Counted from the stretch's first letter, positions 24,774-29,698 are shown. The stretch: 44,315 nucleotides of DNA from Catajapyx aquilonaris (GCA_000934665.2 JYFJ02003262.1:1-44315); one strand, 5' to 3'. The notes: a model not told the origin generated them from the letters alone. A program made the numbers and translations.

Positions 24774-27700
24774 TTAATCCTTATCTCTGGCCGACCTGTC
24801 CGCTCCCTTGGAGAGAAGGAAGCGAACCAGTTCTGGTTGGTTGTGCCATGCAGCATAGTGGAGTGGAGTCCTATTGCCATCTCCTTTGCTCTCGAGCCCC
24901 GCTCCTACACTCAGGAACAGTTTTATCACCCTGATGTGGCCTTCCATAGAAGCATGGTGGATGGGCTGGTCGCCGTCCTCGTCCTTGACCCCCACCTGAG
25001 CCCCTTCCCTGATCAGTGTCTGGCACGTGGGCAGGTGTCCTCCCCAAGCTGCCCAGTGAAGGGGGGTCCTGCCCTGATTGTCTTCTTGGTTGGCAGCAGG
25101 CCCACCTATCCCAAGCAGGTAAGACACCACCTCATCCCTTCCTCTAGAGGCGGCCCAATGAAGTCCACTCTGTCCATACTCATCCCTTGACCCCGCCCAT
25201 CCCTCCGTCCCACGCCCTCTCTCCTCCACCATTCTCTTCACCTTCTTCAGGTTGCCTTCCAAGCAAGATCGATGAAACATTGACGGCATCTGTATGGAAC
25301 AATAAGACCCGCGATAAGGTTTCGCTTTAAAACTCTGGGTTCACACTCGGCCCTTTAGGGTAGCCAACTCAATTGTTGGTCATTAACAATATTATACAAT
25401 AATACAACAACAGTGGTTTAAAGATACATCCACATAATCAATACCTTCAGCAGCTTCACTACTTGAAAGTGACCCTTCTCCTCTGCGAGGTCAAGCGGTG
25501 TCCTCCCAAACTTGTCCTTGGCCGACTTGTCCGCTCCCTCGGAGAGAAGGAAGCCAACCACTTCTGGTCGGTTCCACTCTGCCGCACAGTGGAGAGCAGT
25601 CCGATCCCTCCATCCCTTGTCCTCCAGACCTGCCCCTTCCTTCAGGAGTAACTCCACAACCTGGAGGTGCCCTCCTTTTGAAGCGAGATGGATGGGGTGG
25701 TCCCCATCAGTGTCCATTCCCCTCACTTGTTCCCCTTCCCAGATTAGGATCTGGCAAGATGACAGGTGTCCTCCTTCTGATGCCAGGTGTAGGGGCGTCG
25801 TGCCCCAAATATCTCCCTGGTTAATAGGCCAACCTTCACCAATCAGGTAGGAGACCACCTTATTTCTTCCTTCCATCGCAGCCAGATGAAGTCCACCCCG
25901 TCTATCCACGTCCCTCTTCCCCATCCAAACCTCCACCTCACTCCCTCCATCCTCCAGTATCCTCTTCACTTCATCCAGTCTTCCTTCTTTGCAGGCCTCC
26001 AGAAACATTGATGTCGTCTGTAAGGAATGAATGAGCACCGCGATAATGTACAAACAAGGCTTGACCAAAAAAAAACCGGATTGGCGAATCACGCGAGGGT
26101 GATTCGATTATACTTTTTCTCATTGCCAATAAAATTCTACCGGCAATGACAATAATATGACATCACAATGTTGTCAGGGGTGGTCAGTCTCATTCGTCGT
26201 TTCCAAGAAACCCCAGCCTGTAAACTTGACCTTGGCGGATATAGTTAATCTGGAAAACCGGAAGTCCTGAATCCGAAGGTGCAATCCGTTTTACGCTACG
26301 CGGAACGGCAATCCCAGGGCGAGAAGTCAAAGAGGGGAAAATCAAATAGCGCGCTAGAAGCTGGCCGTACACCAGCGACACCCTCGGGACCTTGGGAACT
26401 GGAGGGCTGCTCCCGCCTGTCCGCGCGCTTAGGCCCATCCCAGAGCGGTGCAGCCCTACAGTTACCCTGTTCCCCGCGTGGCGGCGCCGCTCATTAGCAG
26501 ACGACACACTTTGACACCTCGCCCAGGGATTACCGCTCCGCCTAGCGAAAAATGAATTGCACCGTCGGATTCAGGATTTTTTGCCCGATTTTTAGAGCCA
26601 AACTTTTTAAGTTGAGTGACCCTTTAAAGAGGGGTTCCGCTTGAAAAGACGGGTTTCTAAATGCCTAAAGCAAGAAATCTCGAGGGTGGCAATAGATGAG
26701 AAATATCAAGCAGGACTCACCATTTCAGCTGCTTTGCCATCATATCCAGAGGCCAATCCACATTTTCCCCTTTTTTCATTTTCTTTCAGTCGCAAAGAGA
26801 CGAAGTGGTGTCCCCGACTAATTGCGAACTCTCCAGGAGTGTTTCCATCCTCGTCTCTCCTGACTGGATCTGCCCCTCTTTCCAGAAGGAGGACAAGTAT
26901 ATTCTCGTGGCCAAACGTAGCGGCATAATGGAGAGGGGTCTTTTCATTCCGATCCAGTGCGTCCACCTCCCCTCCCCTGTCCAGCAGGAAGTTCACTACA
27001 AGTATGTGTCCACAGGAAGCAGCCAGGTGGATCCCACTCATTCCATTATCTTCGTCCACCGCCCCCACCAAGTCCACTCCTTTGACATCAACCCAGTGTT
27101 CAACCTCAGGCAGGGCACCCTTCTGGCAGGCAGACAGATATCTCCTGCAGTGTATCTAAAATGGAGCAAGATAAGTCAATAAAAATAATGGCCGTTATGC
27201 GTTCCTCGCTTATTAGTGTTCTAAAATGTACGGGATGTAAGTCCCTCATTGCGCCGATGCAATGAGGTAAAATAAATTGATTCATATGCGTTCCTCACAG
27301 CCACTGTGTTTTTCCTTTTAGATTGCAGTTGTTTTAACTTTAAAATGACAATAACGGAGTGGTGCTACCGTCACCGTAATAAAATAATCTAACCAAACCT
27401 TAGTACCTTCCTCTTCCTGTCCAGGGACAACTGGACATGTTTCTCCACGTAGGAAGAGGACACTCTGGAGGACTGATCTCTCAGCATCTTCTGAATAAGT
27501 CCTGATTCGTCCTGATTCCGGTCTTCAAAGTCCTCTGGAAATGGGTCCCCATTCCTCAGGGAAAGGAAGGTCCTCCTCTTGCCTTCCTTGTCCTCTCCGA
27601 ATGGAGACAACATTTCAAACAGTACCAGGCCCATGGAGTACACGTCAGTCTTGGGACCATACCCTCTCCCACTCCTTTGCTCCGGTGAGCAGTAGAGTCT

Positions 27701-29698
27701 GGTCCCAACACCCGCTGTCTTCTCTGGTGGTGAAGGAAGAGGCGAGACTTCTGGATGGGATGGTTGGGCTGGAGGGGAATGGTCACCATGACCTGGATAG
27801 TGGAAGGAGGAAGGAGGATGGGCCGGGAGAGAGGTAGAGAGACCGAAGTCTCCAATCTTCACGCTCTTTCCATCCAGGGAAAACAGGATGTTGTGTGGTT
27901 TCAGGTCGCGATGGACCAGTTTTTGGGAGTGGAGGTAGGACACGGCCGACATTGCCTGGTGGAAGAAGGTCAGGCAGGTGAACTTGGCAAACTTGTGACC
28001 GTTGTCCAGCAGGTGTCCCAGAGTCTCCTCCCTGCACAACTCCAGTTGCATAAAAAGCAAGGATGTCGTAGGGCCTGTGACGGGGATTGGCGTGGTGAAG
28101 TACTCGGCGGCCCTTTGCGACGCCTCCTGACCTTGCGGGGTTGACCTGTCGTAGGTCATGAGGGCAGCGTCAATCTCCTTTTCTGCCCAACATGGGGGGT
28201 GTTCCTCCCATGTGCTGTAGAGCTTGATGATGTTTTCGTGGTTCAGTATTGAAAGTAAGCGGATTTCTCTCAGAATGACCTCTCTCTGCTGGTAGTCTGC
28301 AGGCAGCCTGACCTTCTTGACTGCAAATTCTGCAGAAGCAAGCTTGAGTTTTGCTTTGACTACTGTTCCGAATCCACCGTGACCCAACCGGGATTCTGTT
28401 TTGAAAATTGACATGTAGTGAGACACGAACTGATCTTCCATTCCTATGGCGGTGTTAGGCCTATTCCCTTCATTCCTGCTAAAGATAAAAAATTATGGCA
28501 ACTCGCTGAAGAAACTCAGACATTCTTATACGACATAATTAACCACTACAAGGAGTACCTTTTACGCCGGTAATTGGCGAGTTTCATACTTTTGTCACAA
28601 AATGCAGAGTTCAAGCCCTTAGCACCCTTAGGCTATGTGTATTTTTTGTATGTGTTTCTATATGTGTGGGGAGAAGGAAAGAATCGGAACTCACCTGGTC
28701 TCTTTGGCATGAACTGACTTCAAGTGATCCATGATGAATCGATGCACGTGTTCATGACCCTTGAGAAGGGCCAGGGAGGCGGGTGTGGCCCCATCCTTGT
28801 CCGTGGCCTGGGGGTCACTCTTTCCCTCCAACAAGAGGAGACAGGTCACCTCCAGATGGCCAAACATGCAGGCCAAGTGCAGAGGAGTGTGGCCAGTGTG
28901 GGTGGTTCGAGTGTCCGAGGAGCCTCCTCTGTCCAGGAGGAGTCTGCATGTCTCCACCAGACCACTCCTGGCAGACCAGTGGAGGGCTGTCCTTCCCTCC
29001 AAGTCCCTCTCGTCCACCTCTTCCTGTCCAGTCAAATCCAGATGGGACCGACAGACTACCACCTTCCTGGCCCTAGACGCCACCATCAGGGGGGTCTCCC
29101 CATGTCCGTTCCTCTTGTTCACCTCTTCTCTTCTTTCTCCCAACAACCTGCCAACGTCTTCTTCCCTTCCCATGGCTGCCATGACGTGGATGTCCTGGTG
29201 CATGCCCAGGAGGAACTTGGCCATCTCCTTTCTATCCTTCTTCACCGCCACCCCTTGAGGCGTCTTCTTGTCCCCATTCTTGTCTCCAGGATCTGCCCCC
29301 CACTCCAGGAGAAGCCTCCCCACTTGGACGTTCCCAGCCTCCGCCGCCGTGTGCAGAGGGGTGTCCCCCACCTTGGTCTTGGCCATTGGGTGTGCCCCTT
29401 CCTCCAGCAGAAGGCGGCAGACCTGCAGGTGGTTGAACTCTGATGCCTCGTGCAGGGCAGTCCTGTCCTGGTGAGTGGAGGCCAGGTTGACCCTTGCCCC
29501 CCTCTTGACCAGTTCCTCGCACACTGGAATCCAACCACGTCTGGAGGCCACCATCAGTGGAGTCACTCCATTCCTGGTGCGGGCGTCCACGTCCTCTCCT
29601 CTGTCCAGCAATATCTTGACCAATGTCAGAGATCCATTCTTGGCCGCCTCGTGCAAGTCTGCCAGGCTGGTGTCGGCTGATGACGTGGCTGCTGTCAT
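24774..29698 (-). CDS. Ankyrin-repeat / eIF2-alpha kinase (PERK-like) / ankyrin-repeat protein, ~1199 aa (exons 29698-28695, 28478-27407, 27155-26721, 26017-25445, 25289-24774)
   Basis: Five ORFs join in frame through GT..AG sites (phases 2,0,0,0). About 10 ANK repeats, then kinase (GHGGFG, AVKK, LREI, WEEHPP.W, LFMQLELC, HRDLKPHN, KIGDFGL, GVGTRLYCSPEQ, DVYSMGLVLFEML), then about 15 ANK repeats. Confidence 0.82.
26266..26576. repeat. Degenerate inverted repeat (old MITE) in intron 3 of the ANK-kinase gene
   Basis: cctgaatccgaaggtgcaat...tcccagggcgag versus ctcgcccaggga...attgcaccgtcggattcagg; related motif near 39577-39650. Confidence 0.6.

Follow-up and report, generated by a model that had tools for sequence, protein, structure and literature searches.

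The window, a stretch of 44,315 nucleotides of Catajapyx aquilonaris DNA (GCA_000934665.2 JYFJ02003262.1:1-44315), possesses on its minus strand a gene which, judged from its sequence, is a real, lineage-restricted and diverged form of the known eIF2-alpha kinase family. It is probably a functional gene of a narrow lineage and would encode a cytosolic PEK-family kinase flanked by ankyrin (ANK) repeats, with catalysis kept, the canonical dimer contacts and the helix-alphaG threonine replaced, and control possibly exerted through the ankyrins. A sequence-only reading of this DNA had proposed a new sensor-kinase architecture, in which a PERK-derived kinase exon was shuffled into an ankyrin array to give an invertebrate analogue of PKR and RNase L. 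That interpretation was partly supported.

Five minus-strand open reading frames (ORFs) spliced in silico gave a coding sequence of 3600 nt, that is 1199 codons and a TAA, with 0 internal stops (Table 1). The frame of about 1200 amino acids, the four junctions (28695/28478, 27407/27155, 26721/26017 and 25445/25289) and the single intronless kinase exon were found as the sequence-only reading had described them, all four introns are of the GT..AG type, the phases were consistent, and the ankyrin-kinase-ankyrin gene structure was confirmed at the level of genomic prediction. Each predicted intron has a pyrimidine tract, and the donors from exon 1 to exon 4 are CAG/GTGAGT, AAG/GTACTA, ATG/GTGAGT and AAG/GTATTG. 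Skipping of the kinase exon would disrupt the frame because the phases of its flanking introns are 2 and 0. An acceptor-like TTTAG, situated 8 nt 5' of the exon 1 ATG, points to a possible exon in the 5'UTR. An Rfam scan of 23500-30500 showed no match. The sequence around the stop was reproduced without differences (e.g. 24344-24826) in Logan DNA contigs of three runs from one sample, which may be the source of the assembly. In the small run X5, whose kind is not on record, contigs outside the repeats were present only in exon-containing bins; one contig of 290 nt lay inside exon 3 without differences, and none crossed a junction.

Table 1. Features of the ankyrin-kinase-ankyrin gene and associated relics, in positions of the window.
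Feature	Position	Strand	Description
Coding exon 1	28695..29698	-	334 full codons + 2 nt from the ATG at 29698; ten ankyrin repeats; Pfam Ank_2 E 3e-54
Intron 1	28479..28694	-	216 nt, phase 2; contains part of a high-copy repeat
Coding exon 2	27407..28478	-	1072 nt; entire kinase domain; beta4-beta5 insert and long activation-loop insert; Pfam Pkinase 6.9e-45
Intron 2	27156..27406	-	251 nt, phase 0
Coding exon 3	26721..27155	-	435 nt, phase 0-0; four ankyrin repeats and linker
Intron 3	26018..26720	-	703 nt, phase 0; very high-copy repeat at ~26240-26627
Coding exon 4	25445..26017	-	573 nt, phase 0-0; self-contained six-repeat ankyrin module, end ...VVKLLK/GT
Intron 4	25290..25444	-	155 nt, phase 0
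Coding exon 5	24774..25289	-	516 nt including TAA 24774-24776; five repeats and start of sixth
In-frame continuation past stop	24714..24773	-	Reads KTPLDLAQEEGHVDVVKLLK; 15/20 residues as at the end of exon 4; GT follows
Relic of last ~92 nt of kinase exon	20640..20736	-	79% over 97 nt to 27405-27496; in-frame stop

The ankyrin repeats were counted by eye and by regular expression. Ten repeats precede the kinase and modules of 4+6+5 repeats follow it, in agreement with the claimed ANK10-kinase-ANK15 layout; an extra, sixteenth repeat is cut by the stop. Exons 3-5 matched Pfam Ank_2 with E 1e-23 to 9e-34. The top Kyte-Doolittle window of 19 residues (1.56) sits within an ANK helix pair and the N-terminus is polar, which bears out the earlier view that no signal peptide or transmembrane (TM) segment is visible. 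Before the kinase Pfam finds ANK only, and the signal peptide, luminal beta-propeller-like sensor and TM segment of the PERK type are not seen there. No dsrm match indicating dsRNA-binding motifs was given by Pfam on any exon, and no KEN (Ribonuc_2-5A) domain follows the kinase, as exons 3-5 give ANK families only. The likeness of the exon 1 array is to generic ankyrins and DARPins; none of the 60 PDB matches listed is RNase L. The suggested analogy to RNase L through ankyrin sensing lost ground here, since the similarity of the N-terminal array is generic and none of it is specific to RNase L.

By sequence comparison, exon 5 is an old duplicate of the exon 4 module (57% at the amino acid and 70% at the nucleotide level, dN/dS 0.42). 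The stop interrupts an ankyrin repeat which is still recognisable beyond it, and costs this terminal repeat 20 residues plus a 12-codon tail. As the in-frame continuation matches the end of exon 4 and is then followed by GT, it is what is left of the truncated sixth repeat, followed by a relic donor. The readable repeat beyond the stop and the relic fragment of the kinase exon both show a locus in flux. This fragment sits just downstream of a neighbouring GPCR gene, 4 kb from the gene. Of the differences in other contigs, 24 were listed, 10 of them synonymous and 14 nonsynonymous; 52 further ones lie beyond that list. Contig depth sums, which give no copy number, were ~200-700 in the exon 1 bins and 36-145 in the kinase-exon bins, with a baseline of ~24-34, and the excess over both exons hints at close paralogues.

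Sequence and modelled fold place the kinase in the eIF2-alpha kinase (PEK) family, as had been claimed. The top 19 PDB sequence matches are all eIF2AKs (PERK 2.8e-46, GCN2 2e-36, PKR 1.5e-32, HRI 1.8e-32) spanning E 2.8e-46 to 1e-28, and the next is a CDPK at ~1e-22 (1.2e-22), ~30 bits lower. The AF2 model of the kinase has a pLDDT of 86.6. Its top 11 Foldseek matches in the PDB are PERK (TM 0.83-0.89 on target), followed by PKR and GCN2, and all of the top 18 are eIF2AKs. PERKs also led the single-domain matches among 1.84 billion representatives, and the highest kinase identity, 40%, was to a crayfish eIF2AK3-like protein. An ESM Atlas search with the kinase gave generic kinase clusters only. 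Translated exon 2 contains all catalytic motifs along with the eIF2AK signatures that the earlier reading had pointed out (W-E-E-H-P-P-C-W, LFMQLELC and GVGTRLYCSPEQ). An insert of ~45 residues after STWEEHPPCW, between beta4 and beta5, aligns with the insert of mouse PERK and was modelled by AF2 as two helices (96-107 and 114-126).

Similarity alone puts PERK nearest, and the tree and the AU tests single out no parent subfamily. In a kinase tree of 48 rows, which holds no HRI sequences, the long branch of this kinase falls, unresolved, between the PERK and GCN2+PKR clades, and outside the PKR clade (support 100/96). Its branch length is 2.16 against a median of 0.61, and such a long branch could also reflect relaxed constraint. 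The proposed derivation from PERK was not borne out, since AU tests rejected no placement (with PERK p 0.295, with PKR 0.187, with GCN2 0.283) and the PERK-profile score of 274.5 bits is at cross-family level (held-out PERKs 462-522, GCN2/PKR members 242-298). The shuffling of the kinase exon into an ankyrin array is also weakened: with phases of 2 and 0, the exon is not a symmetric cassette for simple insertion into an intron of an ANK gene. As invertebrate EIF2AK3 genes have about 4 exons according to the excerpt of PMC5851622, the intronless state of the kinase exon says little about anything.

The kinase domain is predicted from its residues to be catalytically competent. K389, E406, H524-R-D526, N531, D545-F-G and P600-E are kept, along with both activation-loop threonines, T589 and T594 (equivalents of PKR T446 and T451). 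It keeps all 13 invariant columns of a 41-sequence alignment and 52 of the 65 columns with at least 80% conservation in 93 eIF2AK kinase domains. At the sites of PKR R262, D266, D289, Y293, Y323 and T487, this kinase has H, I, A, F, L and E, respectively. At the first five, the dimer sites (among which we take D289 to be a back-to-back contact), the usual residues in the 93 relatives are R (79), D/E (86), D (76), Y (83) and Y (88). Over the six dimer and alphaG sites, 66/94 rows show no departure, and all six are changed only in this kinase and in P0140. The latter, an unnamed protein of 30% identity, was rejected as a close relative; P0121, which aligned in one stretch, turned out to be a normal PERK of a cuttlefish, TM segment included. 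Of 92 relatives, 81 carry T at the Thr487 site, 5 carry S and 2 carry E, and no placement of a one-residue gap nearby gives Ser or Thr there in this kinase. The E490 equivalent is kept (E in 82/90 relatives) and the alphaF-alphaG linker is short, with 6 residues in the AF2 model; these and the R-type alphaG residues fit continued eIF2-alpha recognition.

The role of PKR-type N-lobe residues in dimer contact is described in the excerpts of PMC6467004 and PMC11457141, the former of which presents the R262-D266 salt bridge as strictly conserved and its mutation as hindering dimerisation and activation. For human PKR without inhibitor, the excerpt of PMC11556786 gives scores of -4.9 to -7.1 for T487A/I/N/P; T487S is the only functional one of the five variants measured, and T487E is not among them. 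As the dimer contacts and the alphaG threonine are replaced, the canonical mechanism of dimerising and hitting eIF2-alpha is doubtful, and the earlier claim of ligand-driven dimerisation followed by Ser51 phosphorylation is weakened.

ANK was present in 0/175 of the fetched kinase relatives and in 0/33 of those scanned with Pfam. Word-index searches with the kinase exon gave 25 matches among longer proteins, none of them with ANK, and 5 among near-length proteins (28-40% identity). With exon 1, the matches among longer proteins were dominated by giant ankyrins at 24-36% identity. A kinase family was found in 2 of the 120 exon 1 matches listed, both of unrelated types, and an ANK+Pkinase+Ribonuc_2-5A protein (P0228) surfaced only as a generic ANK match. 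The metagenome contigs scanned gave 19 loci, all at 24-32% identity, and the viral contigs scanned gave no relative. The first Atlas cluster had raised the idea of a giant-virus origin, which was rejected on this ground and on the four spliceosomal introns. No orthologue of the gene was found in any collection searched, and the open (non-subscription) literature, including that on PKR-like architectures in invertebrates, gave no description of an ANK + eIF2AK architecture. Absent from all protein, contig and open-literature collections searched, the ANK-kinase-ANK order retains its place as a candidate new architecture.

Among known systems, PERK (EIF2AK3) is the best sequence and fold match of this kinase. 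The two share the SxY..F N-terminal lead-in, the T..VGT.LY.SPEQ motif and the beta4-beta5 insert, and in both the activation loop is long and contains an (S/T)P(L/M)P stretch. Unlike PERK, this protein has ANK arrays on both sides in place of signal peptide, luminal domain and TM segment, and its kinase is not inside the PERK clade and has the dimer contacts and alphaG threonine replaced. PKR (EIF2AK2) is similarly a cytosolic eIF2AK-family kinase fused to a non-catalytic binding module, but this protein lacks the dsRNA-binding motifs, the R262-D266 salt bridge and D289, Y293, Y323 and T487; the kinase stands outside the PKR clade, though joining it was not rejected. RNase L (ANK - pseudokinase - KEN nuclease) binds its activating ligand through the ANK array. 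It resembles this protein in having ~9-10 N-terminal ankyrin repeats immediately before the kinase fold, and differs in its KEN/Ribonuc_2-5A domain, while here all catalytic residues of the kinase are kept, a second, C-terminal ANK array is present and the ANK sequence is generic. Ankyrin repeats and a kinase or pseudokinase also occur in one cytosolic protein in TNNI3K, ILK, ANKK1/RIPK4 and DAPK1, but those kinases belong to other groups (TKL, CAMK), whereas the 19 best solved matches here are eIF2AKs.

In the preferred reading, the product would be a 1199-residue cytosolic protein of ten ankyrin repeats, a Ser/Thr kinase and three ankyrin modules (4, 6 and 5 repeats), which lie on phase-0 exons and of which two stem from an old exon duplication. 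The kinase would be a fast-evolving PEK offshoot which retains the needs of phosphotransfer and activation-loop phosphorylation, with the five back-to-back N-lobe dimer residues replaced and, in helix alphaG, also the threonine on which PKR depends for handling eIF2-alpha. If the gene is expressed as predicted, control may have passed from the canonical dimer to the ankyrin arrays, by partner binding, scaffolding or autoinhibition. eIF2-alpha would be only one possible substrate, to which we give somewhat less than an even chance. A bona fide eIF2-alpha Ser51 kinase, in which the ankyrins sense a ligand or pathogen product, gather the kinase domains and shut off translation as an invertebrate PKR/RNase L analogue, appears somewhat unlikely. 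It agrees with the eIF2AK family by sequence and fold, the cytosolic protein without TM segment and both activation-loop threonines, and the retained E490, R-type alphaG residues and short linker would favour it over a diverged mechanism. In the excerpt of PMC11305385, every characterised eIF2AK member phosphorylates eIF2-alpha, and PKR, which arose by grafting of a sensor domain onto a pre-existing eIF2AK, offers a precedent. However, all five dimer-contact residues are replaced, R262-D266 included (PMC6467004, excerpt), and Glu occupies the site where T487S alone was functional among the variants covered (PMC11556786, excerpt); the ligand and the induction are themselves part of the proposal, and the ANK array has no specific likeness to RNase L.

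A decaying or dead gene, that is a lineage-specific duplicate under relaxed constraint whose frame is intact through youth, is very unlikely. The stop inside an otherwise readable repeat, the stop-bearing kinase-exon relic, the very long branch with six conserved functional residues lost and the lack of an orthologue in the collections searched would suit it, but 1199 codons are open, all catalytic residues and 13/13 invariant columns are kept, all splice sites are intact, the old exon duplicates give a dN/dS of 0.42 and the stop removes only a small terminal part. Separate genes could also have been wrongly fused, e.g. exon 1 as one ANK gene, a kinase on its own that begins with the in-frame Met at 13 codons into exon 2, and another ANK gene downstream. 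This is highly improbable: the four junctions are predicted from genomic DNA alone and an ATG does lie near the kinase exon start, but the inter-exon gaps are just 155-703 nt, in every exon the ORF ends within 1-6 codons of a consensus donor or acceptor, and the phases agree at 4/4 junctions. Past the stop, the first AATAAA or ATTAAA signals come 358 and 879 nt downstream.

The eIF2-alpha kinases are a textbook case of one catalytic module with interchangeable stress sensors (dsRBD, luminal, HisRS-like, heme-binding). An ankyrin-flanked member, currently one predicted gene in one unannotated genome, would bring in a kind of sensor that the open literature searched does not describe. That it is the founding example of a further, undescribed class of animal enzymes of the eIF2-alpha kinase family is unlikely; in such a class, ankyrins on both sides would replace the sensors and the obligatory dimer would be given up, leaving a stress or immune kinase gated by a protein ligand, possibly as a pathogen sensor, which would either control translation through a new activation route or act on a new substrate. 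The gene would also offer a natural experiment, a family member that has kept catalysis but not the alphaG threonine and the dimer interface, regarded as essential. If this kinase still phosphorylates eIF2-alpha, the accepted activation model would hold less widely than is assumed; otherwise, the neofunctionalisation of an eIF2AK would be documented.

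The predicted gene is composed of five open frames on the minus strand, read from the window sequence and spaced by 155-703 nt. Joined together they give a predicted coding sequence of 3600 nt, comprising 1199 codons and TAA with zero internal stops. The predicted junctions possess consensus donors (CAG/GTGAGT, AAG/GTACTA, ATG/GTGAGT and AAG/GTATTG, with the slash at the exon end) and a pyrimidine tract with AG on the acceptor side, and the predicted introns are in phase 2, 0, 0 and 0 in order; the in-frame joining proposed in the sequence-only reading was thus confirmed. The order of ankyrin array (ANK), kinase and ankyrin array was also borne out by Pfam on all five exons, with ten ankyrin repeats counted on the N-terminal side of the kinase and 4+6+5 on the C-terminal side. 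As the N-terminus is polar and the hydropathy maximum (19-residue window) is only 1.56, within an ankyrin helix pair, the predicted protein shows neither a signal peptide nor a membrane segment, in agreement with the earlier claim, and a cytosolic location is predicted. The sequence, including the stop-codon region, was reproduced by contigs from three DNA runs of one sample, which is possibly the assembly's own source.

Features of the window, with predicted exons of the ANK-kinase gene
Feature	Position	Strand	Detail
Microsatellite	3137-3617	+	long, AAT/ATT-type; poly-Asn or poly-Ile in two frames
Transposase-like ORF	7167-9642	+	long frame of mobile-element appearance, 272+567 codons (by eye)
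Reverse-transcriptase-like long ORF (mobile-element type)	9952-11017	-	by eye
C2H2 zinc-finger repeat frame	16832-18310	+	single 493-codon frame, HTGE(K/Q)PF linker (by eye)
Kinase-exon relic	20640-20736	-	79% over 97 nt to 27405-27496, in-frame stop
GPCR gene, copy 1	20863-22146	-	rhodopsin-type (Srw/FMRFamide-receptor-like), two exons
Very high-copy repeat	24300-24493		3' flank
Exon 5	25289-24774	-	predicted; ankyrin families (Pfam)
Exon 4	26017-25445	-	predicted; ankyrin families (Pfam)
Very high-copy repeat	26240-26627		intron 3
Exon 3	27155-26721	-	predicted; ankyrin families (Pfam)
Exon 2, kinase exon	28478-27407	-	predicted; Pkinase 6.9e-45 (Pfam)
Very high-copy repeat	28568-28761		intron 1
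Exon 1	29698-28695	-	predicted; Ank_2 3e-54 (Pfam)
GPCR gene, copy 2	31710-33480	-	rhodopsin-type (Srw/FMRFamide-receptor-like), two exons
Open frame containing CCRQHDHC	36087-36659	-	motif presumably resembles the secreted phospholipase A2 active-site region

Membership of the kinase exon in the eIF2-alpha kinase family is secure. The best 19 matches among sequences of solved structures were all eIF2-alpha kinases (best for PERK 2.8e-46, GCN2 2e-36, HRI 1.8e-32 and PKR 1.5e-32), followed by CDPKs at 1e-22. HMMER against 1.84 billion representatives returned 323 proteins at E<=1e-30; the top totals belonged to PKR proteins of fish, in which the scores of two kinase domains are summed, and the best single-domain matches among those listed were PERKs such as crayfish eIF2AK3-like and lamprey EIF2AK3. 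The AlphaFold2 model of the exon (mean pLDDT 86.6, low solely in the activation-loop insert) retrieved PERK kinase domains as the best 11 Foldseek matches, then PKR and GCN2. In the alignment with 93 eIF2AK kinase domains, the exon retains 52 of the 65 columns conserved at >=80%, among them all catalytic residues and the two threonines of the activation loop. The family assignment and the complete catalytic motifs noted earlier therefore hold, and the predicted enzyme should be catalytically competent.

The position within the family is less definite. The sequence-only reading derived the kinase from PERK, and PERK is indeed the best match, but descent from PERK in particular did not gain support. 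In both a quick tree (96 rows) and a careful tree (48 rows), the kinase exon was only tentatively placed, with the PERK clade on one side and the GCN2+PKR clade on the other, beside a sponge eIF2AK3-like protein, on a branch of 2.16 against a median of 0.61. HRI sequences were left out of the tree because their scores rank under the best 150 matches listed. Approximately unbiased (AU) tests rejected grouping neither with PERK (delta lnL 3.17, p 0.295) nor with PKR (5.56, p 0.187) nor with GCN2 (6.03, p 0.283). Subfamily profiles gave the exon 274.5 bits for PERK, 206.3 for GCN2 and 171.8 for PKR, while held-out PERKs scored 462-522 bits and GCN2/PKR members 242-298 bits on the PERK profile. 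The exon thus scores at cross-family level, and PERK as best match is expected of any divergent family member. Its intronless state is uninformative as well; invertebrate EIF2AK3 genes have about four exons according to PMC5851622.

The same reading had the kinase exon shuffled into an ankyrin array. Exons 3, 4 and 5 are all phase 0-0 with one self-contained ankyrin module each, while the kinase exon is phase 2-0 and breaks the frame if skipped; a simple insertion of a symmetric cassette is excluded by these phases. Exons 4 and 5 show 57% amino acid and 70% nucleotide identity, with dS 0.72 and dN/dS 0.42, and on this comparison are products of an old duplication. The TAA at 24774-24776 falls within an ankyrin repeat, and the in-frame sequence beyond it reads KTPLDLAQEEGHVDVVKLLK followed by GT, an ending and donor shared with exon 4, to which 15 of its 20 residues are identical. 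As this post-stop stretch is conserved above the exon 4/5 average, the truncation is probably recent, or allelic, and the loss is limited to the last ankyrin repeat.

The gene is flanked on either side by tandem GPCR copies about 10.9 kb apart, 88-95% identical across 20885-22057 and 31759-33364. Their nearest Atlas clusters are Srw-type receptors of arthropods, nematodes and molluscs, which fits an invertebrate animal. Directly downstream of the first copy lies a relic matching the final ~92 nt of the kinase exon, so this exon was once present there a second time, at least in part. In exon 1, and in places along the kinase exon, summed contig depth rises above the single-copy baseline, hinting at close paralogues; 24 listed differences from such contigs comprise 10 synonymous and 14 nonsynonymous changes, with 52 further differences outside the list. 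Contigs of all four runs join 27617 to 27845, so that 227 nt of the activation-loop region are missing, with 26 letters on the shorter side; the join may reflect a deletion-bearing paralogue or an artefact of repeats. An in-frame TCT insertion at 29123 in exon 1, found in one contig per DNA run at depth ~60-81 of 147-284, may be an allele or a frame-keeping close paralogue. The three high-copy repeats reach a summed contig depth of ~5,000-28,000 against a baseline of ~25-35. No Rfam family matched across 23500-30500.

The architecture does not appear to be widespread in the collections searched. Ankyrin repeats were found in none of 175 fetched kinase relatives (local BLASTP against the four ankyrin exons, E<=1e-3) and in none of 33 scanned with Pfam. 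The best identity to the kinase was 47%, and 40% across the full domain, in protein collections including recent animal RefSeq entries, so neither the gene product nor a close orthologue is deposited there. With the ANK10 exon as query, giant ankyrins dominated the matches, and scans of viral and metagenome contigs gave no close relatives. No description of the ANK-eIF2AK combination was found in the literature searched, and "ankyrin" does not occur in the available main text of two papers on eIF2AK evolution (PMC11305385, PMC5851622). The predicted gene is real and lineage-restricted, joining a known kinase family to a domain architecture without match elsewhere in the collections searched.

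PKR numbering was anchored at Gly276/Gly277/Phe278 (PMC11556786), at Lys296 and Tyr323 (PMC11457141) and at the invariant Trp that lies four positions beyond Tyr323. At the equivalents of R262, D266, D289, Y293, Y323 and T487 the kinase exon carries H, I, A, F, L and E, a loss of two surfaces: the N-lobe dimer contacts at the first five sites and the alphaG threonine at the last. Among 93 relatives these sites hold R in 79, D/E in 86, D in 76, Y in 83, Y in 88 and T/S in 86. No departure occurs in 66 of 94 rows, and all six sites depart in only two, the kinase exon and one other protein (30% identical). We take D289 to be part of the PKR interface network. According to PMC6467004, R262 and D266 form a strictly conserved salt bridge, and dimerisation and activation are hindered when it is mutated. 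According to PMC11556786, Thr487 is among the few highly constrained PKR sites, stabilising helix alphaG and inducing the conformational change of eIF2-alpha; in the absence of inhibitor T487A/I/N/P scored between -4.9 and -7.1, and T487S alone was functional among the variants measured, a set outside which T487E falls (PMC11556786, supplement file 5). Retention of a short alphaF-alphaG linker, 6 residues long in the AlphaFold2 model, and of the E490 equivalent points the opposite way to these lost surfaces. On balance, eIF2-alpha is a possible substrate, with our expectation leaning slightly against it. The full scenario of the sequence-only reading, an invertebrate analogue of PKR/RNase L in which a ligand or pathogen triggers dimerisation and translation shut-off, appears unlikely.

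Ankyrin arrays are protein-binding modules. The flanking arrays have probably taken over regulation or targeting of the kinase: a partner bound by them could cluster or release it, or the arrays could pack onto the N-lobe face used by relatives for dimerisation. Since both threonines are retained, activation-loop phosphorylation would probably still be needed.
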